Shown: positions 2,611-47,055 of the stretch, in pieces
How positions within the stretch are numbered: the first letter of the stretch is position 1
Layout of the letters: the number at the start of each line of letters is the position of its first letter
Assembly (NCBI GenBank): GCA_028909515.1
Contig: GCA_028909515.1_4811.1
Direction: 5' to 3' (one strand)
DNA length: 64,000 nucleotides
Origin: a phage
The notes under the pieces: model-generated
What the model was told of the DNA's origin: nothing
The model's database searches: none
Seen by the model: only the letters and a program-made list of their open reading frames with translations
Program-made: the position numbers and the translations under genes

Positions 2611-3359
2611 TCTATCATATCCCCAGTTCTGTTTCCAGGTCCGTTACCTATGTGACCGTGAGTGGATACATTTGTGCCGCCGATTGTTGTGCCAGTCGGA
2701 AGCGTTGCCGTCGTTCCTTCTTTCCCTTCTATACCACCATTGAATGTCGCCTTTCCATTCACTATCAATTGTTGGTCGATAGTGGTAATTGGTGTTTTCA
2801 CGTTTACCCCAGCTGATGCGGTTATGTTTATCGAGTCATCACTTAATGCGATTCGGACAGCGCCGCTGAGTGACTGGATTACCATTGAGCCTGCATCCTC
2901 TCCGCTTATGGTGTATTTTCGGAATACATCCGGTATGAACAGTCCATCAGCGAAAGTTTTCACGCGACCATTGGTAGGCGCGGTCGGCTTCAATTCTTCA
3001 AGGAATGTCGACAACTCGCGGTCGCCAGCGAATATCCAGCCCAAATCACCTTCTTTCAAAGGAAAGTTGACTACGAAGCCGCCGCCGCCGATTGCCAATA
3101 CAGGAATTGACACCAAAGGTTGACGCTCCACTGGTTTATCATCAAGACTTACGAAATGAATAACAGGCTTTATGACTGCTAAATTCTGTTTGCGGTCATA
3201 AGATATTACTTGTGCAGGAATCATGCCGTCAGTGGTATACTTGCCACGGTCCAGCATTCCCTGCAGCGCGGCAAACATACTTGATTTGTCAGTTTGGTTG
3301 GGACTTGTAAGTTGGGTTAACTTTTCTGCCATCATAGACTCCTTATATCTGATCAACAA
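2607..3359 (-). CDS. Baseplate spike or hub protein (gpV/gp138-like)
   Basis: 250 aa ORF overlapping the next gene by 4 nt. Gly-rich core GGGGFVVNF. Assignment from position only. Confidence 0.35.
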   Translation of the reverse strand: MLIRYKESMMAEKLTQLTSPNQTDKSSMFAALQGMLDRGKYTTDGMIPAQVISYDRKQNLAVIKPVIHFVSLDDKPVERQPLVSIPVLAIGGGGFVVNFPLKEGDLGWIFAGDRELSTFLEELKPTAPTNGRVKTFADGLFIPDVFRKYTISGEDAGSMVIQSLSGAVRIALSDDSINITASAGVNVKTPITTIDQQLIVNGKATFNGGIEGKEGTTATLPTGTTIGGTNVSTHGHIGNGPGNRTGDMIE

Positions 3360-3391
3360 TTATAATCTATAAGGAGTCTATAAGCAATATT

Positions 3392-3913
3392 TTAGCGATT
3401 TGACTTTGATTCTTTAATGGCAGCTTCGTTTGAGTAGGCTTCATTAAGTGATTTTGCTATTAGTCCATCAAACATAGCGAATGCATCACGCAATGAATAA
3501 TATTCTTCCAATTCTTTTAACGAAGCAAGACCATTGTTTATTAGGCTTGCGACCATCGGCTCAAGATAATTAGGCTCTACGGTCGGGACGTCGGCCAAGA
3601 ATCTATTTGGAATCTTAGTACCTTTCCAATCACTGAGGAATCCAAAATTGTGCTTCTTCACCGCTTCCATTAGAACTTTCAATACAAGGTTTGGCGGCAA
3701 GTGATTTGGCACACTTTTCACTTCTTCACTGATGGCCTTCTCAGAGTTTAATCTGACTTTAGTTCCGTCATATTTAATAACATGGCATTCACTTAATAAT
3801 TCAAGTGGAGTTAATATGCTTATCGCATCAACCATTTCAAACGCGTCTATTGCGCTGAATTGATGTATTTCATAAGTAACTCCAAAAAGCTCAATTACTT
3901 TATTCTTTCTCAT
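3392..3913 (-). CDS. Tail/baseplate module protein
   Basis: 173 aa ORF in the co-oriented tail gene array. Confidence 0.4.
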   Translation of the reverse strand: MRKNKVIELFGVTYEIHQFSAIDAFEMVDAISILTPLELLSECHVIKYDGTKVRLNSEKAISEEVKSVPNHLPPNLVLKVLMEAVKKHNFGFLSDWKGTKIPNRFLADVPTVEPNYLEPMVASLINNGLASLKELEEYYSLRDAFAMFDGLIAKSLNEAYSNEAAIKESKSNR

Positions 3914-4792: not shown

Positions 4793-6973
4793 TCACCACT
4801 TCAAAGGTGTAGCAGTAAGGTTGTTTATGTCGTTGATATCATCTTGTTCAAGCACTCGTTTCGTTTCGAATGCCGTGCTGCGCGGGTCTTGAGCGCCGTT
4901 GACGTTGATGACAACATTTTTCTGACCCATAGTAATATCACGCCCACCAGGTCGACTATTCGCGGAAAGGTCGCCGCCGTATTTCTGGAATGCTTCAAGT
5001 TGGAATGCAGCAAGACGAGCGTTTTTCATCGCTTCGGCTTGAATGTTTGGTCTTACACCTGGAGTTGAAGCAAGCTGCATGTTTTTAATATAATCCCTTT
5101 GCGTTCCAAGTTTAAGGTAAGTTTGAGCAAAGTCAATATCACCTTTGTTAACTTGCCCCTGCATTAACTGCTCAACAGGCACGTTCAGGTATCCTGCAAT
5201 GGCTTCTTGCAACTGCCTGTATTGCACAGTTTGGCGCGATTGGCCTTGTACTGGTGCATAGCTGCCCTTTGGCGCTTCCGCTCCGCTACCGCTAAGGACT
5301 GGCGTTACTGGTGCACCTTGCGGCGCTGCCGTGGCATACTCACCATTGGATTGTCGGTCGAGAGCGGCCATGACCTTTCCAGGATACGCGCGTGTGTTCT
5401 TGCCCCAGCCGCTGCGGTCGTAGCCACCGTGATACATCGTCAGCGCAAGATTCCAATCGCCGTTGGCAGCGTTTAAATACTCTTTCAAAAGTTGAGCGCC
5501 GCCCATAATGTTTTGTCGGGGGTCACTGCCATCTGTTATTCCAAGACCCTTGAAGTTGGAAGGCATGATTTGCATCAAGCCAGTCGCGCCTGCTCCGCTC
5601 ACAGCATTTGGATTGAATCCAGATTCAACTTCAGTCACAGCTTTCATCATCGCTACAGGTATTCCATAGCGTTTTGAAGCTTCCTCATATATCGAGTCAT
5701 ATGCTGTCGGGTTGCCTGATCCAAGATTATTCCCTACGGTCGCGCCAGTATTCAATGCTGGTGTTCCAGGCATCGCGGATTGACCTGCACTTCGCCCTAT
5801 CTCACCAGCCCATGCAGCCCACGCTTGTCGCTCATCAATGACGCCAGCAAAAGTTGAAACAGCACTTGAAAACAGGTTGATGTCGCGAGTGAAAAGCGCC
5901 TGTGCAGAACGTTGTTCAGCTGCGTTCTGCTCTTGATTCCTCTGGCGTTTAATATCGCCATCAGCCATTTGTGTGATCCATCGGTCAACAGCTCTTTCGT
6001 GACGTTCATTTACAGCGGCCTGCTTGTCGAACGGATGTTTCAAGTCAGAGATGAAGTTGTCGACAAATTCGCTCCATCCGTCAGACATTCTTTGGAACAT
6101 CATTTGGAATCCTTCGACTGTATCAGCAGTTTTGCTGACAAGAGTCGAGAATGCAGGCATGACATTTTCACCAATTACCAGCTCAATACGCCGCCAATCT
6201 TCTTGAATTTGCCCCATACTATTTCGTATAGTCTCAAGAGCAGCTTGTTGGCGCTGCAGCTTTGCCGTTTCCTCATCGCTTATGCGCGTGCTTTCTTTTA
6301 CAGACTGGTTGCGCTCGCGAAGGGCGCGGACTTCATCAGCCGTGAATCCTGCCAATGCACCAATAGCACGAGCGGTCTGCTCATTAACGCTTCTCAGCTT
6401 TGTTCCAATTTCATCAAGCAGCTGGTTTGTGTCTTTTATGCCGCCGTTACTGTTGAAAGGACTTGTGCCCATCTTGTTAAGCAATAAGTTGTCCTTGTTC
6501 ATTACATCAGGGTTGGTGTATGCATTGAACGCCAAATTAGAAGCTTTACTGATTAAATCACGCGACCCCTGTGCGCCAAGGATTCCACCTGAACTTTCAT
6601 TCAACTGTCGTTGTAATTGTTCGACACCCATTGGAGAGAGTCCGGCTTCAAAGCCAAGCTTTCTTTGCGCTTCGTATTCTTTTCGAACATCAACGATGGA
6701 TTTGACAACGACGGCCAATCCTGCGACAACAGGAACGAGCGCGGCAAAGCGATATGTCAGCCGCGCAAGCATTCCGTCAATTGACCCTAGCTCACCAGTA
6801 AGGGGCTTTAGCTCGCCAAAAATATCTTTGAATGCTCCAGAGAAATCTTTGCCAGCTGATTTTGCCTTTTTGTTTGTCTGATCAACTTTATCTTGCAATT
6901 GCTCAAGACGATTGATGGACTCTTTCAAGTCCACCGTATATTGAAGTACAAATTTTTCTAATGAGTCAGACAC
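4793..6973 (-). CDS. Tail tape measure protein with lytic transglycosylase (SLT) domain
   Basis: 726 aa. Coiled-coil-like N-terminal half. SLT family motifs read directly: TEVESGFNPNAVSGAGATGLMQIMP and TMYHGG. Confidence 0.65.
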   Translation of the reverse strand: MSDSLEKFVLQYTVDLKESINRLEQLQDKVDQTNKKAKSAGKDFSGAFKDIFGELKPLTGELGSIDGMLARLTYRFAALVPVVAGLAVVVKSIVDVRKEYEAQRKLGFEAGLSPMGVEQLQRQLNESSGGILGAQGSRDLISKASNLAFNAYTNPDVMNKDNLLLNKMGTSPFNSNGGIKDTNQLLDEIGTKLRSVNEQTARAIGALAGFTADEVRALRERNQSVKESTRISDEETAKLQRQQAALETIRNSMGQIQEDWRRIELVIGENVMPAFSTLVSKTADTVEGFQMMFQRMSDGWSEFVDNFISDLKHPFDKQAAVNERHERAVDRWITQMADGDIKRQRNQEQNAAEQRSAQALFTRDINLFSSAVSTFAGVIDERQAWAAWAGEIGRSAGQSAMPGTPALNTGATVGNNLGSGNPTAYDSIYEEASKRYGIPVAMMKAVTEVESGFNPNAVSGAGATGLMQIMPSNFKGLGITDGSDPRQNIMGGAQLLKEYLNAANGDWNLALTMYHGGYDRSGWGKNTRAYPGKVMAALDRQSNGEYATAAPQGAPVTPVLSGSGAEAPKGSYAPVQGQSRQTVQYRQLQEAIAGYLNVPVEQLMQGQVNKGDIDFAQTYLKLGTQRDYIKNMQLASTPGVRPNIQAEAMKNARLAAFQLEAFQKYGGDLSANSRPGGRDITMGQKNVVINVNGAQDPRSTAFETKRVLEQDDINDINNLTATPLKW

Positions 6974-7394: not shown

Positions 7395-7955
7395 CTATAT
7401 TCCTACTGTTGATTTTATTTTATTATATAACGAACTCACAGTTGTAGTCAAACTGACTGGTTCTTTAATAGCAACACCATTTGATGATTCGTCTGCGGAT
7501 TGTTTAGGGTCGAAGCTTCCTTGAATGCTAAATGACGTTTGCTCGAAAGTTATTACTATTGAGACGCCATTCAAGTTTTCTTCTGACTGGGTTATTTCAA
7601 CGTCAGACATCGACATTTTACTGGCAATGATGCTTCGGGAAGTTATTGAAAATGTGACTTCGTCATCATCAAATGCATTTATGATATTTTCAATTGTAGA
7701 CTGATCATTGCAAATTACGTTTAACGCCATATGGGCTGGCATTACAACCTTTGCCGCCTGTAAATTGCTTACTGATGATGTGCTTGACACTTCGACGACC
7801 TGCATTGCTGTACCAGCAAGAGGGAATTGAGTTGTTTCTGCGGGGGATGTTATTTCTGCAGAAACAGGTGAAAGCCTTGTCCAGACAGGAAGACCTGTTG
7901 ACTCATTCGTTATGGTCAAAGATTGACCAGAAAGCAGAATCGAAACGAAGTCCAT
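7395..7955 (-). CDS. Tail module protein
   Basis: 186 aa ORF, tightly packed in the tail array. Confidence 0.35.
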   Translation of the reverse strand: MDFVSILLSGQSLTITNESTGLPVWTRLSPVSAEITSPAETTQFPLAGTAMQVVEVSSTSSVSNLQAAKVVMPAHMALNVICNDQSTIENIINAFDDDEVTFSITSRSIIASKMSMSDVEITQSEENLNGVSIVITFEQTSFSIQGSFDPKQSADESSNGVAIKEPVSLTTTVSSLYNKIKSTVGI

Positions 7956-8488
7956 CAGAACATCCCCTTGATACCATTCATCACCTTTGTAGCAACGCCA
8001 GTGACGCTGGCAGAAGTTTCTTTTATGTATGCAATGCCGCGCTCTATTACTGTTGAGTCGCCTGCCTGCGCTGTTTGAATAGACACATCCTGCTGTGTTA
8101 ATATCTCATGGAATACCAATTGTATGGGTTGCGACGTTATATTGTCAGCGTCCTGGCTGAAGTTGTTATTTTGCAGCACCATACGTTCGAATATTAAACC
8201 ACGGGAATTAATTGTGTATATAGTCGACCTGTTTTGCAACATCTTAGCTATTGCATCTGATGCGCTTTTTGTTTGTGCTATCACGGTGACAGTCAGTATT
8301 CGCGGCATCTTTACTCTGCCATCGACAATATAGCTGCCATCTTCCCTTTGGTTTTTGAATATCTTTGCTTGGAGTCTTATTTTGACGTTGACTATTGCCC
8401 ATCCAAGCGTGGATACTTCTCCAAGGTTGAAGCTCTTTATCGTGAAGCTTCTGTTTGATAAACTATATGACAATAAATCGATAGCCAT
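7955..8488 (-). CDS. Tail module protein
   Basis: 177 aa ORF, start overlaps the upstream stop. Confidence 0.35.
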   Translation of the reverse strand: MAIDLLSYSLSNRSFTIKSFNLGEVSTLGWAIVNVKIRLQAKIFKNQREDGSYIVDGRVKMPRILTVTVIAQTKSASDAIAKMLQNRSTIYTINSRGLIFERMVLQNNNFSQDADNITSQPIQLVFHEILTQQDVSIQTAQAGDSTVIERGIAYIKETSASVTGVATKVMNGIKGMF

Positions 8489-8985
8489 TAAATGGACCCC
8501 AATATGCTCTGCACCACGCCTTTTGCAATTTGAGACGTGCTCTGTGCGCCGCCGTAGCTGGCAAACACAAATGTGTATCGGTTTGTCTTGCGACGGCCTG
8601 ATTGCTCTATGGAGTCACCAAGCGGACCGCTGATTATTGTTCCGTTCGAGAATGCCACCCTTCCACCGTCAGGATATGTGATAAGCATTGATGTCACATC
8701 CTGAATTGGCAACCACTTGAATCCACCTTTACGGGCAGATAATAAAAGCTTAAGATTTATGTCATCTTCAGTGTTTGGAATGACCGCAATGGATACGCGA
8801 ACGACGGCGGCTTTGTCGTATATGCAAATGCCGCCGTCGTAAGTAAGTTGATAGCCTACTGATTCAACTTCCTCAATAATTAGCGAATCCTGGTCATCAG
8901 ACAAAGAACTGATATTCAGCCCAACAGGGAAAGATTGAAGAGCGACAATTCTAATGCTTGTGCCAAATCCACTAATATTGACCAT
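8488..8985 (-). CDS. Tail tube-like protein, paralog 2
   Basis: 165 aa. N-terminus MVNISGFGTSIRIVA matches MINVSGFGASIRLVA of the 9936-10403 product, with further shared blocks. Confidence 0.5.
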   Translation of the reverse strand: MVNISGFGTSIRIVALQSFPVGLNISSLSDDQDSLIIEEVESVGYQLTYDGGICIYDKAAVVRVSIAVIPNTEDDINLKLLLSARKGGFKWLPIQDVTSMLITYPDGGRVAFSNGTIISGPLGDSIEQSGRRKTNRYTFVFASYGGAQSTSQIAKGVVQSILGSI

Positions 8986-9610: not shown

Positions 9611-9936
9611 ATTGCAAACTCCGCTTCAGCAGTGGCCTGGAATTCAGCCAACTCAGATTCTGACATGTAATATAGATTACAGCCGCCAGAGTTAAAACTT
9701 TCATAATCAGGTACGCTGTCGAAAATGAAATTACCGTACCCAATCATAAGATACTTATAAGGCACCATTGGGATACCACCAAAACAGCGCACCCCTTGAA
9801 TCAAAAGTTCACCGTTGCGGTATACGTCGGCGCACATATGCTCGATAGCGGCAAAAATGTGCAACTGCCAATATGCACCGTCAACGTTAAAGCTGATATT
9901 CTGGTTAGGTACGCTGTCAAGTGGTATTTGATACAT
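9607..9936 (-). CDS. Hypothetical tail module protein
   Basis: 109 aa ORF with overlapping start/stop. Confidence 0.4.
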   Translation of the reverse strand: MYQIPLDSVPNQNISFNVDGAYWQLHIFAAIEHMCADVYRNGELLIQGVRCFGGIPMVPYKYLMIGYGNFIFDSVPDYESFNSGGCNLYYMSESELAEFQATAEAEFAI

Positions 9937-10403
9937 TATAAAATCTCTTGGTTGCTCACGCCAGTTTTGACTACGTTCTCAAACTTGAAGCGATATTGAC
10001 GTGTTTTCACACGACCTTGAGACTGGATGCCAGGAATTACTGAACCAGTTGTCAAGGTGCCTTTATTCAGCGTGATAACCATTCCAGAAGGATAAGTCAG
10101 CACAAGTGTGATCACGTCTTTTGCGGAGTTCTTACGCTTGCCTACGCGGTTTGCAGCCGCGAGAACGTCCAAGTTGACATCACTTTCAGAAGTAGGGATG
10201 ATGTTCACGCCTACTTCAAGCGGGTTTGCACGGTTCCATACTACCAAGTCACCGTTAAGGCCCATTGCGGCCTCAGAGATTTGCAGGTCCGGCGCGTCAA
10301 TCGGATCAGCATCATCTGCAAAATCAGAAAGAGTCACACCATTCGGAAAAGTGTTTGATGCTACCAAACGAATCGAAGCGCCAAAACCGGAAACGTTAAT
10401 CAT
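9936..10403 (-). CDS. Tail tube protein
   Basis: 155 aa ORF directly downstream of the sheath-like gene. Paralog of the 8488-8985 product. Confidence 0.5.
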   Translation of the reverse strand: MINVSGFGASIRLVASNTFPNGVTLSDFADDADPIDAPDLQISEAAMGLNGDLVVWNRANPLEVGVNIIPTSESDVNLDVLAAANRVGKRKNSAKDVITLVLTYPSGMVITLNKGTLTTGSVIPGIQSQGRVKTRQYRFKFENVVKTGVSNQEIL

Positions 10404-30701: not shown

Positions 30702-30992
30702 TTATAAGGAGACGATTTTAAAATAAGTTACTTCGCCGCCAAGTTGCGGGACCGCGATATATTCGCCGCCGATTTCGGTAATCGTATAGACGAAGCCGTT
30801 GATGGTTACGCGGTAGGATACTACGTCCTCGTCGCGATACTTGTAAAGGTCGAGGAAGTTGATCGGCTCATAAATAGACTCGATAGTCGCGTCTACGTTA
30901 GAGAGATAAACGCTCTCTAAGGTTTCGCCAAATACGTTAGAGTTTTCGGAAGTCTCGACGCGAGCGGAACGGATAGCGGATAAAGTAATCAT
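30702..30992 (-). CDS. Small acidic protein, paralog A of a three-member family
   Basis: 96 aa. AGGAG site. Blocks shared with B and C, for example SVYLSNVDATIE with EVYAANVDQTIE. Confidence 0.55.
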   Translation of the reverse strand: MITLSAIRSARVETSENSNVFGETLESVYLSNVDATIESIYEPINFLDLYKYRDEDVVSYRVTINGFVYTITEIGGEYIAVPQLGGEVTYFKIVSL

Positions 30993-31625: not shown

Positions 31626-31910
31626 ATGGCTATTCTTAACGTTTCTTCTATTCGCAACGCTATCGTCGAGAACTACGGCGTAAAACAAATTTTATCCGAA
31701 GTCTACGCCGCGAACGTAGACCAAACTATCGAGGCGGGTGGGGTAACGGTCGCCGAGGCTTTTAAACTTTACGCGGCGCTACCGGAATCGGACCGCGAAG
31801 CCTTCGAAGTAAACGTTAACGGATACTTCTTCGAAGCGGTCGAAATCGGTAACATCTTACTCGTTATGGGCGAAGAAGAATTTGAGACCTTCTCCCTCGT
31901 CGAAGCGTAA
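31626..31910 (+). CDS. Small acidic protein, paralog B
   Basis: 94 aa. AGGAG site. All 7 Leu codons are non-CTG and both Gln codons are CAA. Confidence 0.55.
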   Translation: MAILNVSSIRNAIVENYGVKQILSEVYAANVDQTIEAGGVTVAEAFKLYAALPESDREAFEVNVNGYFFEAVEIGNILLVMGEEEFETFSLVEA

Positions 31911-34528: not shown

Positions 34529-34981
34529 TTAAAATATAAAATTCTTCACTCCAAGCCTTTTGAATTCTTTCCTTAACATTATATTAAACTTCTTCAATTT
34601 AGTTTTATTCATCCTTAGCGGATTGTAGGTGAACACCTTTTCTATTACTTCCTTACGCATCTTTGAGCGCATATTAGTTAAGTAATAATTCTTGAACATA
34701 TTAATAAGGTGATTGGCTTCCAGCTTAAGCTCAATTACTTCTTCCGATTCATCAAGCTCAAGCAGTCCTTTTTGCGTAAGAATATCTCTTAATATATCCT
34801 GACATTTCTTGCAATCACCTTTGCCTAAAAGCGAGTCGATGTAATCGCCGCTGACGCGCTCATCACCGAAATAAGTTGCGCGACCACAAAGGCTTTGCAC
34901 TTCTCCTTCATCAAAGTAGTGCGCACGATGAGCCCACTTCGGTATGGCCCAACCAGCGGCGATAAGCTTTTTACCCATCAC
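34529..34981 (-). CDS. Hypothetical early protein with Cys-rich N-terminus
   Basis: 150 aa. CGR...CKKC zinc-binding-like motif. Lys-rich C-terminal half encoded by AT-rich DNA. Confidence 0.4.
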   Translation of the reverse strand: MMGKKLIAAGWAIPKWAHRAHYFDEGEVQSLCGRATYFGDERVSGDYIDSLLGKGDCKKCQDILRDILTQKGLLELDESEEVIELKLEANHLINMFKNYYLTNMRSKMRKEVIEKVFTYNPLRMNKTKLKKFNIMLRKEFKRLGVKNFIF

Positions 34982-35403
34982 CCCTCCTTAACAACCCGAT
35001 AAGCAATAATGTCGCTGCCTTTGAGTGCTCCTATATGACCCCAGTGAAGATGGTCAGAAAGTCTCGACAGTACTTTATCACCTCCATTGCGCAGCTTGTA
35101 TTCAACAATCTCGCCAGGCACCGGATTCTCGCCACCAAACCACACGGTCCACGCTTCCTCCTTCGGCGCATCATCATCCACGCCTATAGTGGCAACAACG
35201 TCGTGCAACTGCTTAACGAGCGCCCACGCATCACGGACCTGCGAGCGTAATGCAACCAACTCGCGTTGCGCTTCACCATATTTCGCTTCCAGCGCGGCAT
35301 AGTCCTCATATTCAACGTAGCCGCCTTCATCATCCTTTACAACTTCGCAGGTGCAAGCGTGCTGCGTGCAATAATCAACATCGTAACGTTGTATCATGAT
35401 CAA
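34978..35403 (-). CDS. Hypothetical early protein sharing a C-terminal domain with the 36803-37303 product
   Basis: 141 aa. C-terminus WTVWFGGENPVPGEIV...SDIIAYRVVKEG. Confidence 0.5.
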   Translation of the reverse strand: MIMIQRYDVDYCTQHACTCEVVKDDEGGYVEYEDYAALEAKYGEAQRELVALRSQVRDAWALVKQLHDVVATIGVDDDAPKEEAWTVWFGGENPVPGEIVEYKLRNGGDKVLSRLSDHLHWGHIGALKGSDIIAYRVVKEG

Positions 35404-35660
35404 TACTCCTTGTTTACTTCTTCAATTATTTTTTCGGCCAATTTGATTGCCTGTTCTTTGTTTAACACCAAACATGATGTTTCACTGTATATCGACAGCT
35501 CAACAAGATTGCAACCTCCTTCACCATCGTTGTAAAACTGAATGCTGCACACATCGCCGTCATTATCTTCAAACTCAAAGGTTGGGCATTCAGGGGTCCG
35601 AAGATTGCTCCTGTCCTTGAACATTTCTTTTAAGCAATCATTAATCATTTTAAGCTCCAA
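35400..35660 (-). CDS. Hypothetical small acidic early protein
   Basis: 86 aa, overlapping start/stop. Confidence 0.4.
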   Translation of the reverse strand: MELKMINDCLKEMFKDRSNLRTPECPTFEFEDNDGDVCSIQFYNDGEGGCNLVELSIYSETSCLVLNKEQAIKLAEKIIEEVNKEY

Positions 35661-36136
35661 GTATTTAACAGGGTGTTTCGTAAGTTCTGCACTTCTATCT
35701 TGAGAAGGTCAATTTGCAAGTCACGATGGGCCAGTTCAGCGGCGATGTCCGACTTGCTGTAAAGTCCTTCATGAGTCATGGCATAGATGTGGCGCGTATA
35801 ATAGCCGCCCTCGTCGAGTTGCTCGATGTCACGCTGCCCGACTGCGTATTGTTTATCGGTCGATGGCGCTGGGTCCTGGATTTTGATTGATTCGACTTCC
35901 TTCAATGAATCGCGTGATGCTGGCCTGTTCTCTTCGAACATCTTTCCATCACCAATTTGCTTGCACCAAAGCGAATCGCCAATTGCGTATCCCCACTGGC
36001 CGCGCCAATCGTTCCATGCAGGCTTCCCCTCATACGCCCAGATGGTTCCGTTAGAGTCACGCGCAACGAATCGCGCACGAGCGTCTATTTCGTATTCTTT
36101 ACCTTCAAAATTGATGCGCTGCGTTTTGTTAGTCAT
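35645..36136 (-). CDS. Hypothetical early protein with a Trp-rich motif
   Basis: 163 aa. Motif VARDSNGTIWAYEGKPAW...GQWGYAIG recurs in the 39240-39557 product. Confidence 0.45.
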   Translation of the reverse strand: MTNKTQRINFEGKEYEIDARARFVARDSNGTIWAYEGKPAWNDWRGQWGYAIGDSLWCKQIGDGKMFEENRPASRDSLKEVESIKIQDPAPSTDKQYAVGQRDIEQLDEGGYYTRHIYAMTHEGLYSKSDIAAELAHRDLQIDLLKIEVQNLRNTLLNTWSLK

Positions 36137-36465
36137 GATGCATCCTTAGTTGGATAGAATTTAGGGTTGTTCTTATAGAACGCCTTGAGCCATGCCTTTG
36201 CTTCAGCAATGCTGCTGAACTCTTCCTTGGAGAGTCCGGTGCGGTCCTCGCCTGCGACCTTGAAATGGATGCGCACCTTGAGACGAAGGTTGGTTGCTCT
36301 CGCGTAGTGGCCTTCATAGCCGTCATGGTTAAGGCTTACTATCGCGGCGAGCATCTCGCAGTCTTCTTTATCGGGATTGCCGCTGTAACAAATCGGCCAG
36401 CCACGACGTTGGAATGACCTGTATGAGCCTGTCGGCTCAGGGTCCACGTACCATTTCAATTTCAT
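36133..36465 (-). CDS. Hypothetical early protein
   Basis: 110 aa ORF. Confidence 0.45.
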   Translation of the reverse strand: MKLKWYVDPEPTGSYRSFQRRGWPICYSGNPDKEDCEMLAAIVSLNHDGYEGHYARATNLRLKVRIHFKVAGEDRTGLSKEEFSSIAEAKAWLKAFYKNNPKFYPTKDAS

Positions 36466-36803
36466 TTAACCTTCTCCAATTGGAATCTCGTTTCAGGAAA
36501 GCCCGCAACAAACATGTCACGGCCCTCTACATCACGCTTCACAAACCATCTCATGCCGTTAACAACCGTGAAGACAATTTGCTTTCCATCAATAATAAGT
36601 CCTTTTGCCTCATAAAGCAAATAAGACTGACCGACCTTGAAGATTGACAGTTCTTTGCCTGTGCTGGTGCACTTGAGCCGCCACTTGGTGAGATTGGATT
36701 CACTCGCCTCGATGTCAACAATCTTACCGCGCAGCGGCGATGTGCGCTGAAGCTCGGCCATCTGTTCATCGAACGTTAGCTCACGGCCTTCTTGCTCTTC
36801 CAT
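36462..36803 (-). CDS. Hypothetical early protein
   Basis: 113 aa ORF. Confidence 0.45.
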   Translation of the reverse strand: MEEQEGRELTFDEQMAELQRTSPLRGKIVDIEASESNLTKWRLKCTSTGKELSIFKVGQSYLLYEAKGLIIDGKQIVFTVVNGMRWFVKRDVEGRDMFVAGFPETRFQLEKVK

Positions 36804-37303
36804 TATTCCTCCACGACGCGATAAGCGATGATGTCATACCCCGATTCTTTATGACTCCAACGCCATTTTTCGGATTTTGAAGGAAAAATCGTCTTTGTGC
36901 CTTGCCTTACCGCCACGCGGACTAACTTGCCAGGCACCGGATTGTCGCCGCCATCCCAATCAATCCAACCGTCAGCAGTCTTTTGTTTATCCTTCAAATG
37001 CTCATGCTTCTCACCGATGTGGGCGACAGGTTGACGGCTTCCGTAATAGAATGCTAATGCAACGTCGTAGGATGGATGAGTATTCGAAAGACAGATGTCA
37101 TCGCACCAAAGCTCCATGGTGCGCGACTTAAGCGTCATCATGTTAGTATACCACTCGATGGTGTAGTGGTCGTTAAGGTTGCCGACGATATAGAAGTTGC
37201 GACAAAAGTGCGCAGCGTCATCCGACTTCTCGCGGCTATAGCTTCTGATTGCGCCTGCCTTTACAGCCATTTCCAATACTGCTTCGAGTTGTTCGATTTT
37301 CAT
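36803..37303 (-). CDS. Hypothetical early protein sharing a C-terminal domain with the 34978-35403 product
   Basis: 166 aa. C-terminus GWIDWDGGDNPVPGKLV...YDIIAYRVVEE. Confidence 0.5.
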   Translation of the reverse strand: MKIEQLEAVLEMAVKAGAIRSYSREKSDDAAHFCRNFYIVGNLNDHYTIEWYTNMMTLKSRTMELWCDDICLSNTHPSYDVALAFYYGSRQPVAHIGEKHEHLKDKQKTADGWIDWDGGDNPVPGKLVRVAVRQGTKTIFPSKSEKWRWSHKESGYDIIAYRVVEE

Positions 37304-37536
37304 TTCTTTGCTCCTAGTTCAATTTGATAGCCGATTGACAATTCATTTTCGCCGATGTTGAATGCATCAACGGGCTGCGACATCACCGCTTTTAAATATA
37401 CCTTCTTGCGCCGCTTCGCCTTGTACAGACAACGGTCGCCGCTGCGGTTGTAGATGTTAAGCCAGGTGCGCTTGCTAATCTTATACGGCACATGCGGCTT
37501 GATGAACAGTAAACGGGCTTTAAGGTTGGATGTCAT
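37300..37536 (-). CDS. Hypothetical small basic protein
   Basis: 78 aa ORF. Confidence 0.35.
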   Translation of the reverse strand: MTSNLKARLLFIKPHVPYKISKRTWLNIYNRSGDRCLYKAKRRKKVYLKAVMSQPVDAFNIGENELSIGYQIELGAKK

Positions 37537-37831
37537 AATAGTATTTTCCTCCTCTCATGTTCTCTTTAATTCCTTGTAATGCCTCGCGACCCTTCTTTGT
37601 CATCACCACGGATGAATAGCGCGTCGGGTCTTTCTCTCCTGGCACCGCCCAATCAACAAGGCCCAACCGGAATAAGACAGGGATTGATGGCGCATTGATG
37701 TCGTGAAACAGTGATGGCCGCTTTTCATAAGCCTTCTTGCAATCGCCGCGCAGCATGTATGGCGTTCCGTCTTCCATGCGATATAATGTCTGAATCTGAG
37801 CTAGGCTTAATCTCATTGCTGTCTTCTCCAA
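37520..37831 (-). CDS. Hypothetical early protein
   Basis: 103 aa ORF. Confidence 0.4.
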   Translation of the reverse strand: MEKTAMRLSLAQIQTLYRMEDGTPYMLRGDCKKAYEKRPSLFHDINAPSIPVLFRLGLVDWAVPGEKDPTRYSSVVMTKKGREALQGIKENMRGGKYYYDIQP

Positions 37832-37998
37832 ACTGCGTGTAATGTTTTCTGGTCAAACTTGGACAGCGTTTCACGCTCCGAAGCCTTAAGGAATCGCGTG
37901 CCAAAGAACAGCATGCCTTGCGGCGTTTTAACGAGTGACACGCCTTTGTTGCGGTAGAAGCTTACCAGTGCTGATGCGTTATGGACTTCGGTACTCAT
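37813..37998 (-). CDS. Hypothetical small protein
   Basis: 61 aa ORF. Confidence 0.3.
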   Translation of the reverse strand: MSTEVHNASALVSFYRNKGVSLVKTPQGMLFFGTRFLKASERETLSKFDQKTLHAVWRRQQ

Positions 37999-38360
37999 AA
38001 AACGCCTCCAAAAGTCGCAACACGAATGCCGCGACGCTCAAACGTTAACATAGGATTAATACCCGTCGCGCAGGTGATGTAAGCGTCATCGGCGACAAGG
38101 TCATAACCGCCTGCGCAAAGAATGAAGGTCGTGTCGCTGTTCTTCAAGAGCATAACAGCAGCTGCCGCACCTTTCTTGTTCTTAAAGAAGAATACTGGTT
38201 CACCGCCTTCTTGCGTCTCTTTGAACTCCTGAATAGCGCCGCACTCTACTGCGGCCTGCATCACCTTCAACAACTTGCTCTTCATCGCTTCGGTGCTCAT
38301 AATAACCTCTCCTTTGCTTGATGAAGTAAGTATAATACAGACAAATAAAAAGGCAAGCAA
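37995..38360 (-). CDS. Hypothetical early protein
   Basis: Track ORF of 121 aa with a TTG start; an internal ATG (MSTEAMKSKLL) is the more likely start. My reading of the sequence near 38280 was one base out of register with this ORF. Confidence 0.4.
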   Translation of the reverse strand: MLAFLFVCIILTSSSKGEVIMSTEAMKSKLLKVMQAAVECGAIQEFKETQEGGEPVFFFKNKKGAAAAVMLLKNSDTTFILCAGGYDLVADDAYITCATGINPMLTFERRGIRVATFGGVL

Positions 38361-38378
38361 TTAGCTCACCTTTTTGAA

Positions 38379-38639
38379 TTAAATCTGATCGGCTTCTTCG
38401 TGTAGACCAACTGACCTTAACTTACGCCGCAAGTAAGCTTTCTTTTCACACTCGCGTCCGGCTGGCGTGACGCGGTACTTTAATGTGTTCTCTCTATTCT
38501 TGCGTCGGTTGTTCTCGTCGAGTAGCTCTACCAGCGCCTTTGCGTCGTCGAGTGTTAACACCACGGGCCGCGACCCATTAACGGCCTGTCGAAGCTTCCG
38601 CGCGGCAAGGGCCAGTGGCGTCATCGGTCCCTTATTCAA
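38379..38639 (-). CDS. Hypothetical small basic protein, possibly DNA-binding
   Basis: 86 aa, Arg/Lys-rich. Likely ATG at MTPLALAARKL. Same register caveat near 38580. Confidence 0.4.
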   Translation of the reverse strand: MNKGPMTPLALAARKLRQAVNGSRPVVLTLDDAKALVELLDENNRRKNRENTLKYRVTPAGRECEKKAYLRRKLRSVGLHEEADQI

Positions 38640-39028
38640 GCCAACTCCTTATTCATCGGCGTGATGGACAAGACCTTTACTTCAGTGATGTCGCGGTTGT
38701 ATTCGCGCTTGATTTGAAGAATCTGGGATTGGATGCGCGCGATGAAGTGCGGCGTGACTCCTTCCTTAACGTTAATCCAGGCCGCAAGCTGCATTGAGTC
38801 GATGTCGCTTCTCATCACCGTTGGGCAGTTGATGGTACTTGGTGCACCGTTCGCGCCGTAGGCCAGTTGGGAATCATAAGCCGAATACCTGAACGCAACC
38901 AGGAACATTCGCTCTTCAAGCTGGCTTTCGCTTCTTGGATTCTTATCGCAACCAGACATGTGCTGCACAAACTCTTCATGCGGAAGGTGCATGACGTCGT
39001 GGCAATAAGGGCAACGTTTCATTCTCAT
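38636..39028 (-). CDS. Zinc-finger-like early protein
   Basis: 130 aa. N-terminal CPYCH...H...C motif. Confidence 0.45.
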   Translation of the reverse strand: MRMKRCPYCHDVMHLPHEEFVQHMSGCDKNPRSESQLEERMFLVAFRYSAYDSQLAYGANGAPSTINCPTVMRSDIDSMQLAAWINVKEGVTPHFIARIQSQILQIKREYNRDITEVKVLSITPMNKELA

Positions 39029-39261
39029 TTTGCATACTCCATAGCATATCGCTGCAACTTGAATGCAGCCTTGTTTAGTTGCTTGTGTCTTGCGTACAAG
39101 CGCTCACGTTCTTCTTCAGGGCAATCGGCACGAAGAATAGACATGGCAATACTTGACATGGCATTAAGGGTGCGCTGAAAGGCAGACACCATGCGCAACT
39201 CATTGCGCTTATTAAAAGACAACTTACCCAGCGCGGCATTCATAATTGCACCTCGACACAC
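39025..39261 (-). CDS. Hypothetical small protein
   Basis: 78 aa ORF. Confidence 0.35.
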   Translation of the reverse strand: MCRGAIMNAALGKLSFNKRNELRMVSAFQRTLNAMSSIAMSILRADCPEEERERLYARHKQLNKAAFKLQRYAMEYAK

Positions 39262-39557
39262 GATTCACTGGCCTTGAAGCTCCAGCCTTCCAGACCGACT
39301 TCGCCGCAACAGCGCACCTTTGCCCAGCCAGTCATGAGCCATTGGTGATACTTTTCGAAGTATGTCGGCTTTTCTGAGTAACAATGAACAAGGCCGTTAT
39401 CGTCAATGGCCACGTAACGCGTCCAAGGTGCAACGGGTACAACTACGTCGGGGTGGCCTTCTGGCCAAGGCTTGGTGTGTACAGCTGTGTTCAAGTCTAT
39501 GTTTAACACGCTTCCTAACCGCTCGTCTTGTTCCTTGTCGATGCCTAAGTAAATCAT
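39240..39557 (-). CDS. Hypothetical early protein with a Trp-rich motif
   Basis: 105 aa. Motif VAIDDNGLVHCYSEKPTYF...WLMTGWAKV, as in the 35645-36136 product. Confidence 0.45.
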   Translation of the reverse strand: MIYLGIDKEQDERLGSVLNIDLNTAVHTKPWPEGHPDVVVPVAPWTRYVAIDDNGLVHCYSEKPTYFEKYHQWLMTGWAKVRCCGEVGLEGWSFKASESCVEVQL

Positions 39558-39641
39558 AATTCACCTCACTTGTTCGCCTTGATGAAAAGAGTATAAATAT
39601 TGATAAAAGAAAAGGCAAGCATTTAGCTCACCTTTTGATAT

Positions 39642-42345: not shown

Positions 42346-42993
42346 TTATCCTGTGGCCTGCATATTGCGTACATACTTCTGCTCTAATGAATAGATGAAG
42401 TCGGCGACAGTTAATCCCTTCGTGTGCCATTCATACATGGTGAAGCCTGTATTCAGGAAATAGCCGCGCACCTTGTCCATCGCTTCAGCTTCCTCCATTG
42501 AAGCCATCAGCGCGGCGACGTTGTCATAAGAAGGCACAAATCCCTTCTTGCGTAGCGCATTGCGCAAATCTTTAGTTCTGAATCCAATCTTGCAAGGGTC
42601 ATCACGGCCCGTGGATGATGCAACCTTCGGTAGCGCAAGGAACTCTTTAAGGAACATTGCAATGTTCAAGTCTCCTGCGTCATCAAGCTTCTGGATTCGG
42701 TTGCGACCGCGACCCTTGAATTCACTTGCACGAGGGTGAGCGCCAAAACAGTGCGCCCCTTCCAGTTTAGGGTCGATGATCATTACATCTTTACCAATGC
42801 GCAGCTCTACGTAGTAAAGATAAGACTCATCGACAAGCTTTGTGCGCTTGCAAGTGATTGAGTCCTTATCATAACCAAAGCCACGCAACACGGTTGAAAT
42901 CATCCGGTTCATTTCTTCGCCGTGAACGTCACTCTCTTTGTTCAGTTCACCAAGATTTTGAAAGAATTTAGCGATGTTGATTGCTTTATTCAT
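42346..42993 (-). CDS. Hypothetical early protein
   Basis: 215 aa ORF directly downstream of the helicase. Confidence 0.45.
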   Translation of the reverse strand: MNKAINIAKFFQNLGELNKESDVHGEEMNRMISTVLRGFGYDKDSITCKRTKLVDESYLYYVELRIGKDVMIIDPKLEGAHCFGAHPRASEFKGRGRNRIQKLDDAGDLNIAMFLKEFLALPKVASSTGRDDPCKIGFRTKDLRNALRKKGFVPSYDNVAALMASMEEAEAMDKVRGYFLNTGFTMYEWHTKGLTVADFIYSLEQKYVRNMQATG

Positions 42994-44663
42994 CAGAATT
43001 CATCCTTATCTCTTCCCAAAGAACGTTTACGCTCAATAACCTTCTTCAAGAATTCAATATCTTCAGGGTCAGACTCATCGCGGATGAGATACGCTAAGAT
43101 GGTCATCAAATCAGAAATGTATTCCCCTGATTCATTCTTAATCAGCGGCGTAAAGTAACCGCGCTGGTTGCGATAGGTTGCAGGCTCAAAACCAAGCTTC
43201 GACATGTGCGGCGCAAGGGTACGAGAGAAAGGCGACTTGCCGCACTTCGCTCTGAATCCCATAGCAATAGCACCACTGGTGATGTGCCAGCGTCCGCTGT
43301 GATGTCGGTCATAAGGCGCGGTGATGACGACTTCAACAAGGTCGTTGTCAACCATCTCATCACGGATAACGCCGCGCGCACGTTCCATTTCGTTCTTGCT
43401 GAACTCAGTAAGCATGCGAGATGTTTCACCAACAAACGCATTGTAACCTGCTTCGCCGTGCTTCTCCATCCACGCAGCACACTCAGCCATCAACTGCCAA
43501 ACGTCTTCTTTCAAAGTGGAAAGGTCAGCTTGGAAATCTTTCGACCAGTTCGGTTGCCCGTCCTTGTCAGCGAGTTGGCCAACAAAGATAGGATACACAC
43601 GACGGTTGCCCGTGTCATCGCGCTGCATACCTGCGTATTCATTGCCGTCCATGATAGCAATCCACTGGCGTGGTTTAACCTGCGTATCTTCAAATTTGAA
43701 GTCCAGGTCATCTTCTGTCTTAGTCAGGAATGCTTTCATGTTTTCGATGTCGGCCTTTTTAAAGCCTGTCATCTCGCCGACGTTCGCGATAATCGAGCGA
43801 CCCGTAATAGCTCGCAAGAACGGGTTGAAGTTTTGCGCGGCTAAGTTTAACGGAATCGGTGTTGCGTGGCGGTCGTTCATAATAGCTTCGCAAAGCAGCT
43901 TGCTAAAATAACTCTTCCCTGCGTTCTGGCCGCCGATGAGCGCGATGGAGATTGGCGCTTGACAGCCAGGGTTGGTCAGGCGGTTATAGAGCGATAGCCA
44001 AAAATACACACCGATTTGTCGGTTTAACTCTGTATCGAATGGTCGGAATAGCTCGATAAGGTATTTCTCGATGCGCGCAGTACCGTCCCATTCAGGCAGC
44101 TTCTTGTAGAAGAAGTCCATCAGGTCGTCGCGCTGATAACGCATGGCCCATTCCTTATAGGATTGAGCGACCTGACGTGAGTTTGGGTTGGACAATCCTG
44201 CTGCGTCGACAGCGGCAACTATCTCTGTGACTTCCAAAGTACGGTCGGTGAATGTTTCGCCGCGATGGTCGACTAAGCGCCCACGAAAAGTATCTTTGTG
44301 AGGGAATGGAACAACGCCACTTCCCTTATCAAACAACGCGTCGAAAACCGCATAACGGTTCATGTCACTCGTCCTGTCTGCCTGTAGAACGAAGTCATCT
44401 TTGGTAGGCTTGTAGTGAGGGAACTTGATTACCTGAAGTGAGGCGAGCAAGCGTGCTCTTTCAACCAAGTCTTCTTCACCGTAGCATTCCATGCGCTCTG
44501 AATCTTTTTCAACGGCTTTATGTTGAAGGCTGATTTTAGCTCTGGTGCCTTGCTGCTCTGCCGCCTGCATTTCTTCCGAAACGCCTGCATCTTGAATTTC
44601 GTCAAAGATTGCACCAAATTCATCACCTGTATCCTCTGGAAGATTGTCATTATTAATTGACAT
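42993..44663 (-). CDS. P-loop NTPase, replicative helicase (SF3 / primase-associated type)
   Basis: 556 aa. Walker A IALIGGQNAGKSYF. Sits downstream of the primase-like gene. Family assignment is inferred. Confidence 0.55.
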   Translation of the reverse strand: MSINNDNLPEDTGDEFGAIFDEIQDAGVSEEMQAAEQQGTRAKISLQHKAVEKDSERMECYGEEDLVERARLLASLQVIKFPHYKPTKDDFVLQADRTSDMNRYAVFDALFDKGSGVVPFPHKDTFRGRLVDHRGETFTDRTLEVTEIVAAVDAAGLSNPNSRQVAQSYKEWAMRYQRDDLMDFFYKKLPEWDGTARIEKYLIELFRPFDTELNRQIGVYFWLSLYNRLTNPGCQAPISIALIGGQNAGKSYFSKLLCEAIMNDRHATPIPLNLAAQNFNPFLRAITGRSIIANVGEMTGFKKADIENMKAFLTKTEDDLDFKFEDTQVKPRQWIAIMDGNEYAGMQRDDTGNRRVYPIFVGQLADKDGQPNWSKDFQADLSTLKEDVWQLMAECAAWMEKHGEAGYNAFVGETSRMLTEFSKNEMERARGVIRDEMVDNDLVEVVITAPYDRHHSGRWHITSGAIAMGFRAKCGKSPFSRTLAPHMSKLGFEPATYRNQRGYFTPLIKNESGEYISDLMTILAYLIRDESDPEDIEFLKKVIERKRSLGRDKDEF

Positions 44664-45972: not shown

Positions 45973-47055
45973 CTATTTTATGCCACCTGCACGACGATTT
46001 ATCATGTCAAGTTGATTCTCAATATAAGGCATGACGATTGCTTCAACAAAAGCGGTCCAACCTTTCTTGCCTTCCCCTTTACGGTGACAGTCGTGGGCGC
46101 AACCGAACACAAATTCATGTTCTGCACCAGGGATAGGGCCGCGAAAGTAAGCGCCATACGGGTCGCCGTTGGTGTGTTCTTCACCCCAAGGACAGATTAT
46201 GCGGCACTTGCCTGACATGTTCTCGATGACGTCACCATCAGACCCTTCACCCATCTTGCTGCGCGCTAGAATCTGCTGGGCTATTTTATACCAAACAGCA
46301 TCATACTTGTATTCATCGACGTCAATTTGAATCTCACGCTTTTGCGGCATGACGACGTGAAAGCCAAATGCCTGACAAATGTCTTCGATGGTGTAGCGCA
46401 ATGAGTAGTCTGCATGGACAAGTCGGCAGCGGAACGGGTCGCCGTTCTCATCGACATATTTATAGGGGCCGTCATGAGTCACACGCTTGTTGTTGATGCA
46501 CCCAGGAACACGGCCCACGCGCGTTACGTCTTTAATCGTGTTGTCGCCGCCCTTCTTGAGTACCATGTTAACGAAAGACCCAAGGAACGCTTTGAACTGA
46601 ATAAGATGGTCAATCGGTTCTTTAAAGAAGTACCAAAGCTGGTGGTTGTTCGGTGAAGTCTCGACGATGACAGTCGGCTTCAGTCGCTCAAAAAAGAATT
46701 CCAAATCTAAATCGCCTTTGGACCCTTTACCGTGACCGATGTCGTCGACCATCATCGCCATGCCGTGACCAAAGGCCGACTCTGTACGCCAGTATCGCAT
46801 CTCACCCGTCTTTGGGTTGGGAGACTTACGCATTGAACTGATGCAAGCATAGCCGTTTTGGTGCTGCATGAGCGGCTTTCCCAACTTCCAAGGCTTAGGC
46901 CAGAAGCTGCTGTTAATCTTCTTGCCGCGCTCGTCAGTCTGCACCGTTGCTTCAGGCGCAAACACCGTCATGACGCGCTCATCTTCTGGAATGCCTCTTT
47001 GGAGTTCTGTTAAAAACTCTTCGATTATTTTTGCTTCTTCTCTTAAACTAGCCAT
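45973..47055 (-). CDS. Primase-polymerase-like protein (archaeo-eukaryotic primase type, putative)
   Basis: 360 aa. Motifs MVDDIGHG and NHQLWYF, C-terminal Cys/His cluster CPWGEEH...CAHDCH. Lies upstream of the helicase. Family is inferred. Confidence 0.45.
   Translation of the reverse strand: MASLREEAKIIEEFLTELQRGIPEDERVMTVFAPEATVQTDERGKKINSSFWPKPWKLGKPLMQHQNGYACISSMRKSPNPKTGEMRYWRTESAFGHGMAMMVDDIGHGKGSKGDLDLEFFFERLKPTVIVETSPNNHQLWYFFKEPIDHLIQFKAFLGSFVNMVLKKGGDNTIKDVTRVGRVPGCINNKRVTHDGPYKYVDENGDPFRCRLVHADYSLRYTIEDICQAFGFHVVMPQKREIQIDVDEYKYDAVWYKIAQQILARSKMGEGSDGDVIENMSGKCRIICPWGEEHTNGDPYGAYFRGPIPGAEHEFVFGCAHDCHRKGEGKKGWTAFVEAIVMPYIENQLDMINRRAGGIK

Follow-up and report, generated by a model that had tools for sequence, protein, structure and literature searches.

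The window analysed here is a stretch of 64,000 nucleotides (nt) of phage DNA (NCBI GenBank assembly GCA_028909515.1, contig GCA_028909515.1_4811.1), in which four small genes between positions 34978 and 39557 are of interest. They are named A (34978-35403), B (36803-37303), C (35645-36136) and D (39240-39557), and all of them lie on the minus strand within a tightly packed run of small open reading frames (ORFs). The region from 34.5 to 39.6 kb showed 87-92% DNA identity to Wifcevirus phages of Escherichia and Shigella (e.g. ECO71P1, Bas99/Bas101 and FEC19). These relatives are myoviruses of about 68 kb, and the genes under the match are all annotated as 'hypothetical protein'. An initial annotation, made from the sequence alone, had proposed a shuffling of domains among early ORFans at this locus. 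According to our analysis, at least three protein modules, each mobile on its own, are combined as mosaics in the four genes, which belong to a leftward small-gene cluster, as was observed in the homology of the modules, their modular architecture, the cassette boundaries, natural recombinants and a wide distribution. The following features were determined (aa, amino acids; HMM, hidden Markov model):

34978..35403, minus strand: gene A, 141 aa from TTG; N-terminal module, coiled-coil middle and A/B domain, with alternative alleles for each module
35299..35403, minus strand: N-terminal module of A, about aa 1-35, MIQRYDVDYCTQHACTC...; phrog_23083, E 6e-9
34981..35172, minus strand: A/B domain of A, aa 78-141, W.W.GG.NPVPG ... 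DIIAYRVV; HMM match aa 78-140; profile free of window sequences, E 1.2e-19
36803..37303, minus strand: gene B, 166 aa; conserved head and A/B domain
36992..37303, minus strand: head of B, aa 1-104; phrog_21861 matched over 1-104 of 104, E 9e-54
36806..36991, minus strand: A/B domain of B, aa 105-166; HMM match aa 105-166; AlphaFold2 predicted local distance difference test (pLDDT) 84.4, predicted template modelling score (pTM) 0.70
36843..36929, minus strand: hypervariable core cassette of the B domain, gene nt 375-461, aa 125-154; defined by the drop in DNA identity
35645..36136, minus strand: gene C, 163 aa; D-like N-terminal domain, linker and conserved C-terminal module
35882..36133, minus strand: D-like all-beta domain of C, aa 2-85; phrog_1972, E 4.9e-10; D-only profile, E 4.3e-5
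35675..35839, minus strand: C-terminal module of C, aa 100-154, GGYYTRH...SKSDIAAELAHRD; phrog_34533, E 1.4e-15
39240..39557, minus strand: gene D, 105 aa; single all-beta domain; phrog_1972, E 6.5e-21; AlphaFold2 pLDDT 64.8

It had been proposed that the products of A and B comprise unrelated N-termini and a common C-terminal domain, and both parts of this statement were confirmed. The N-termini showed no similarity and fall into separate PHROGs, with A matching phrog_23083 and B matching phrog_21861. For the C-termini, BLASTP yielded 39% identity over 76 aa, with an E-value of 3e-14 in the pairwise comparison and of 1e-11 against all 554 ORFs of the window. The alignment comprises aa 70-140 of A and aa 93-166 of B, and the rest of both proteins remained unaligned. 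The C-termini of both proteins also match the same four families, phrog_9174, 11995, 16943 and 26870, with E-values of 5e-10 to 1e-6 for A and 6e-15 to 1e-6 for B. The profile search that had been suggested as a check gave the same result, since a profile built from metagenomic sequences only, containing no sequence of the window, found A (E 1.2e-19), B (E 6e-24) and no other ORF of the window. This shared unit, in the following called the A/B domain, comprises about 55-60 aa, starts with W.W.GG.NPVPG, carries an invariant central Trp and ends with DIIAYRVV. The profile matches of A and B cover the domain in full, with W.W.GG..PV, the invariant Trp in its centre and DIIAYRV. A relationship of the B head to the ORF 37995-38360, in which a stretch like AV.AGAI is likewise present, was considered and dropped, as no significant score was obtained.

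The second pair, C and D, had been connected by a shared motif D.NG...Y..KP ... W..GW. The link itself proved significant and spans a domain, but the W..GW end of the motif is not conserved. BLASTP showed 11 identities in 28 positions, with an E-value of 1e-4 in the pairwise comparison and of 0.03-0.05 against the ORFs of the window. Both proteins match phrog_1972 (C with aa 4-83, E 4.9e-10; D with aa 2-104, E 6.5e-21), and hhalign of the ortholog alignments of C and D gave a probability of 85.5% and an E-value of 5.7e-6. A profile of D orthologs and Seuratvirus sequences, from which C was excluded, found C as the only other ORF of the window (E 4.3e-5). Full-length homologs of D are present in Seuratvirus siphophages with 31-40% identity, and via this bridge the region shared by C and D extends to about 75 aa (aa 2-85 of C and aa 25-104 of D) with the consensus F.G..y.i...A.f.A.D.nG....Y..KP......QW.......C..i..G..f....dsL.EV. 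In both ortholog sets the most variable stretch of the domain lies directly after the KP motif. Since a word-indexed homolog search returned Wifcevirus orthologs only, even with Seuratvirus seeds, the C/D model is based on a shallow alignment. As judged from these alignments, the unit shared by C and D is confirmed as a domain and not only a motif, at lower strength than the A/B domain.

Both similarities could also be ascribed to chance or to composition, without any shared domain, and the BLASTP result for C and D is marginal if taken alone. However, independent profiles recovered both pairs, the PHROG families are shared within the pairs, hhalign gave the 85.5% mentioned above for C and D, and the A/B domain has thousands of homologs. 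For A and B this explanation is already refuted, and for the two pairs taken together it retains practically no probability.

Searches for known relatives yielded no match of the shared domains below E 0.05 in Pfam-A and NCBIfam, either for the four proteins or for 28 members of the A/B family. Among the known anti-phage defence and counter-defence families (PADLOC-DB) no match was found for A to D, apart from Cas11d at chance level for D (E 0.027). Sequence searches of the PDB with single proteins and with profiles gave matches at chance level and no relative of the A/B or the C/D domain; designer Pizza propellers were matched by the C/D profile repeatedly, but weakly, and blades of NHL or 'Pizza' beta-propellers are among the closest known systems. 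All matches of a Foldseek search against BFVD were uncharacterised homologs from phages, and a cluster look-up of ten long relatives returned no informative names. For the A/B domain, neither a description in the literature searched nor a solved relative was found. By profile score, the proteins of the window are members of PHROGs 9174, 11995, 16943, 26870, 1972, 21861 and 34533, all of which are listed with 'unknown function'. PHROGs distributes the A/B domain over several whole-protein families, so that its unity does not become apparent there.

The C-terminal module of C, in the following called the C tail module, also occurs independently of the D-like domain. The C-type genes of FEC19, Bas99, RCIP0319 and AV128 lack this domain; the tail module stands alone with 72-77 aa in FEC19, Bas99 and RCIP0319, and a different tail is fused in AV128. 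It is furthermore located inside Seurat gp78, after a Cys-rich N-terminus. Altogether, the tail module (GGYYTRH..SKSDIAAELAHRD) was present in 138 phage records, mostly of Klebsiella phages, and its last 20 residues show two alternative forms among the orthologs. Outside the window, it was located at the following positions:

L009, 1188-1421
L008, 1195-1413
L011, 1208-1600
L005, 2101-2640

Because the C tail module is mobile on its own, at least three mobile modules are involved. Several orthologs of C, in other Wifcevirus genomes (P0060, P0061 and P0062), are truncated to 54-64 aa and end inside the hypervariable stretch past the KP motif. Their sequences suggest frameshifts or recombination scars at this stretch.

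For a comparison within the genus, nine annotated Wifcevirus genomes (window included) and one contig from the Sequence Read Archive (L059) were used, and the genomes were scanned with the two domain profiles (A/B and C/D). The domain shuffling that had been predicted was directly visible here, as the A/B domain is swapped between heads, duplicated, deleted or left alone within the genus. D was present in 9 of the 9 annotated genomes. The commonest architecture, found in most phages, consists of a head and one A/B domain. Proteins of the A type comprise three exchangeable modules, namely an N-terminal module with two alleles, a coiled-coil middle with two alleles and the C-terminal domain with at least four, and these alleles occur in nearly all combinations. 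The second allele of the N-terminal module is carried by FEC19, AV128, Bas99 and RCIP0319. In ECO71P1 the A-type protein of 198 aa contains two different alleles of the A/B domain in tandem. Proteins of the B type share the same head, combined with four different domain alleles or with none; the head-only form of 108 aa was found in Mansfield and AV128. Mansfield and Bas101 share one allele group (58% identity), which is joined to the A head in the former and to the B head in the latter, and among the Wifcevirus phages compared the same allele group never occurred twice in one phage.

Two natural recombinants document such transfers. ECML-117 carries a single gene in which the B head is joined to an A domain allele, and the genes between A and B are missing. 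The first 350-380 nt of this chimera match B, with 90-100% identity to the B gene of RCIP0319, and the remainder together with the downstream flank matches A with 80-100% identity. The crossover lies at gene nt 351-380, within the conserved W.W.GG.NPVPG edge of the domain. On contig L059, a domain-only protein of 70 aa (P0001) begins with MKLKWY, the first six residues of a neighbouring ORF of 110 aa, and therefore represents another deletion chimera.

For gene A, the true start is probably the ATG at 35397 (MIQRYD), resulting in a protein of 139 aa, and not the TTG at 35403 (MIMIQRYD), since related genomes annotate this ATG two codons downstream of the TTG. The N-terminus of A showed a weak match to the Lar-like phrog_3592 (E 0.002, aa 4-48 only) and no match in Pfam. 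In a Lar-like restriction alleviation domain a zinc-ribbon pattern of four Cys is expected. The N-terminal stretch of A contains three Cys and one His, and the alternative allele of FEC19 contains none of these residues.

Between A and C, an ORF of 86 aa (35400-35660, minus strand) is present in the phage of the window only. The nine other Wifcevirus loci compared lack it, and A and C, or what remains of them, lie next to each other there. Its sole relative among 50,697 phage records is a gene of Erwinia phage Snitter with 40% identity. The second copy of the A/B domain in ECO71P1 is located at the equivalent position.

A comparison of the B gene with four relatives on the level of DNA revealed sharp boundaries of the exchanged segment. 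The identity was 70-100% up to nt 374, dropped to 23-56% at nt 375-461 and then returned to 77-100%. At the edges of the domain, DNA identity amounts to 80-100%, on either side of this core of about 90 nt. At least seven allele groups of the A/B domain were distinguished, which show a mutual identity of 38-64% over the whole domain, contributed mostly by the edges. Within the core, the alleles differ by insertions and deletions (indels) and at 44-77% of the nucleotide positions. The sequences characterise this variation as a replacement by recombination from a diverse pool and not as point-mutational drift. A diversity-generating retroelement was considered as the source and dropped, as indels and changes at most core positions are not the expected pattern; such a target should show substitutions restricted to adenines when compared with a template repeat, and a reverse transcriptase in the vicinity. 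In the AlphaFold2 model of the B domain, which is confident (pLDDT 84.4), the variable core comprises the central strand and the following loops, and the conserved edges correspond to the first strand and to the last strand with DIIAYRVV.

The designation of these genes as ORFans could not be maintained. The A/B domain has 9,450 representatives, D has the full-length homologs in Seuratvirus, and the C tail is present in the 138 phage records described above. For the A/B domain, the number refers to the cluster representatives (50% clustering) found by an exhaustive profile search at E ≤1e-3, of which 2,834 remained at E ≤1e-10. A word-indexed search yielded 26 relatives; 18 of these consist of the domain alone (59-76 aa), and the rest are extended at the N-terminus in various ways. 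The best 147 new profile matches are proteins of 117-1031 aa with 2-9 copies of the domain in N-terminal, central or C-terminal position. The autonomy of the A/B domain is backed by these 18 of 26 stand-alone proteins and by the multi-copy arrays. By tblastn the domain was found in 91 phage records, including Wifcevirus and Escherichia coli myophages of about 137 kb, with Sinorhizobium, Caulobacter, Pseudomonas, Burkholderia, Klebsiella, Edwardsiella and others as further hosts. A degenerate DNA pattern for DIIAYRVV gave 45 loci in bacterial genomes, which is about the number estimated by chance, and the profile confirmed nine of them. In Bosea sp. LjRoot237 (L052), three separate ORFs with the A/B domain lie within 4 kb of the bacterial chromosome (2805-3275, 3272-3487 and 6084-6446 (-)), which recalls the arrangement in Wifcevirus, and the setting looks like a prophage. 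The domain is central, stand-alone and N-terminal in these three ORFs, respectively.

Fusion partners could be identified in 18 of the 147 top relatives, comprising DUF3310 (SaV-like) in six, dGTP_diPhyd_N in five, DUF6378 in five and dATP-dGTP_PPHyd and HD in one each. Because of these partners, the main rival explanation is a role of the A/B domain as an accessory of nucleotide or nucleic-acid metabolism, by ligand sensing, regulation or replisome tethering, allied with MazG/SaV-like nucleoside triphosphate (NTP) pyrophosphohydrolases. The Wifcevirus copies would then be co-opted or orphaned from such enzymes. The names among the BFVD matches ('SaV-like', 'DUF6378' and 'dATP/dGTP diphosphohydrolase N-terminal') agree with this explanation, as does Burkholderia phage HN04, in which the domain ends a protein of 160 aa inside the replication module, between the DNA polymerase gene and the exonuclease and primase genes. 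On the other hand, such heads occur in only 18 of 147 relatives, and neither the A head nor the B head gave a match of this kind. With a mean net charge of -2.8, the A/B domains are mostly acidic (77% have a negative net charge and 3.5% one of +3 or more), which argues against a generic binding of nucleic acids, and a hypervariable core is hard to square with an invariant small-molecule ligand. Altogether, an involvement in nucleotide metabolism appears doubtful.

The reuse of small domains on different heads had initially been taken as typical of modular effectors that target a common host factor. Accordingly, the A/B domain would bind one conserved host factor and the different heads would bring different activities. 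The presence of the same domain on unrelated heads and in phages of alpha-, beta- and gammaproteobacteria as well as the strong conservation of the scaffold residues would agree with this assumption. However, core alleles of 38-60% identity exist among phages of one host species, and ECO71P1 has two different alleles in one protein, for which reason a common host factor fits poorly. Moreover, stand-alone and tandem-only proteins are common, and the B head occurs without the domain in two phages. Since core alleles are replaced within one host species, variable targets fit better than one conserved target, and a single common target is considered unlikely.

A third possibility would be that the domain is a neutral module for self-association or scaffolding, and that the swapping merely reflects recombination at conserved DNA edges in a region of genes that can be dispensed with, where no selection acts on specificity. 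This would account for the tandem arrays, which reach 8-9 copies, and for the fluidity of the whole region, as several phages lack C or have a truncated form of it, two have lost the B domain and the window carries an extra ORF. The scaffold residues, however, are kept across thousands of clusters and in very distant phages, which indicates purifying selection on a function. In addition, every phage compared retains at least one copy, and the copies are always different alleles. A neutral origin of the pattern is thus regarded as quite improbable.

The explanation we prefer starts from the three modules. Module 1, present in A and B, is a small, predicted beta domain of about 55 aa with a conserved scaffold and a hypervariable core of about 30 aa, which is predicted to lie on the surface. 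Module 2, forming D and the N-terminus of C, is predicted as an all-beta domain of about 75-100 aa, and module 3 as the helical tail of C. The conserved edges of module 1 serve as DNA homology anchors for recombination, which makes the exchange of the core, the transfer of the domain between heads and its duplication or deletion possible. Module 1 itself would act as an autonomous, mostly acidic protein-binding module whose variable core sets the partner. Alone or in tandem it might be a small binder or inhibitor, and fused to a head it might form a tether between this head and the partner. Variable host proteins are envisaged as partners, with targets of defence or takeover as the leading candidates. 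It is inferred that the domain binds proteins, that its core determines the specificity and that it serves counter-defence or takeover. Taken together with the parts that were observed, we see a roughly even chance that the A/B domain functions autonomously as a binding module whose specificity can be exchanged, and that it acts on variable host proteins. The step of binding specificity alone is put forward tentatively, at somewhat less than even. The broader proposal, that the domain is a widespread, so far undescribed phage binding scaffold with a fixed mini-fold and a recombination-exchangeable core, used singly, in tandem arrays or attached to effector heads to neutralise variable host proteins such as defence systems, must be called rather unlikely at present.

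Several points weigh against the binding module with exchangeable specificity. The identifiable fusion partners are exclusively of the MazG/SaV-like nucleotide pyrophosphohydrolase type, apart from one HD domain, and could point to nucleotide metabolism rather than to the binding of host proteins. Furthermore, hypervariability driven by recombination can arise without selection for new specificities, and the alleles are too divergent for an analysis of the ratio of non-synonymous to synonymous substitution rates (dN/dS). With respect to a role in counter-defence, of all the defence systems tested on four BASEL Wifcevirus isolates, only the EcoP1_I type III restriction-modification system was effective, although no genome protection mechanism is known for these phages (PMC11990801). 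This insensitivity leaves room for counter-defence genes, without pointing to A to D in particular. If the broader proposal of a binding scaffold that neutralises host proteins holds, it could help to explain the resistance of Wifcevirus to nearly all tested defence systems.

Upstream of the small-gene cluster and on the same strand, a primase/helicase gene (42993-44663, minus strand; phrog_4630, E 5e-254) and a primase gene (45973-47055, minus strand; phrog_4861, E 1e-197) are located. The cluster may therefore be co-transcribed with the replication genes rather than form a separate early operon. Judged by gene position, the description of A to D as early genes is at most plausible. An element GGTGAGCTAA[A/T]TGCTTGCCTTTT is present twice, at 38347-38375 and 39610-39636 (both minus strand), with a chance expectation of 0. 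It is hairpin-forming and overlaps a promoter-like TTGCCT-N16/17-TATACT. As both copies fall into short intergenic gaps of the small-gene cluster, their sequence and position suggest that they may be phage-specific promoter or terminator units. Elsewhere in the window, an all-against-all phmmer comparison of the ORFs revealed three further paralogous pairs:

8488-8985, minus strand, and 9936-10403, minus strand: E 7e-28
7395-7955, minus strand, and 7955-8488, minus strand: E 1.4e-5
31626-31910, plus strand, and 30702-30992, minus strand: E 4.9e-6

Phage genes of unknown function mostly appear as isolated ORFans. In the present case, several of them could be traced back to a small number of reusable modules, with natural recombinants showing how new combinations arise. 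A definition of the A/B domain would annotate thousands of 'hypothetical' proteins at once. Conserved edges around a hypervariable core are the signature expected of an arms-race interface. The Wifcevirus and BASEL isolates, among which near-isogenic variants of the alleles are available, are thus a tractable system for the role of the domain in defence sensitivity or host takeover.

Among known systems, the only named proteins to which the A/B domain was found fused are SaV (DUF3310), DUF6378 and the MazG-like dATP/dGTP diphosphohydrolases, and DUF3310 is said to be mentioned in mycobacteriophage overexpression screens for growth inhibitors. In contrast to these proteins, A and B carry other, unnamed heads, and the A/B domain lies outside the corresponding Pfam models. 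A further likeness exists to the polyvalent, modular conflict proteins of phages and conjugative elements, which Iyer, Burroughs, Anand, de Souza and Aravind reportedly described in 2017. Both share the reuse of small domains in many combinations as well as tandem and mixed architectures, whereas polyvalent proteins are typically very large and contain recognisable enzymatic or anti-restriction domains, and the modules described here match no named domain. It is well known that accessory genes of phages are mosaic and reuse domains. New are a very common yet unnamed domain without a recognisable fold, the cassette-like hypervariable core of this domain, and a set of natural recombinants in which each step of the shuffling can be followed within a single genus. 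The closest likeness in organisation is to the host-range cassettes of phage tail fibres and receptor-binding proteins, in which a divergent binding segment with sharp boundaries is swapped among close relatives within a conserved framework. The T-shaped tail fibre of Wifcevirus itself comprises a conserved N-terminus and variable receptor-binding domains (PMC11990801). Unlike these cassettes, the proteins with the A/B domain are small and non-structural (70-200 aa) and are encoded in a cluster of hypothetical genes, the variable unit comprises only about 30 aa within a 55-aa domain, and its target is only postulated. Should the broader proposal of a widespread binding scaffold prove correct, the A/B domain would represent a cytoplasmic counterpart of the receptor-binding cassettes.

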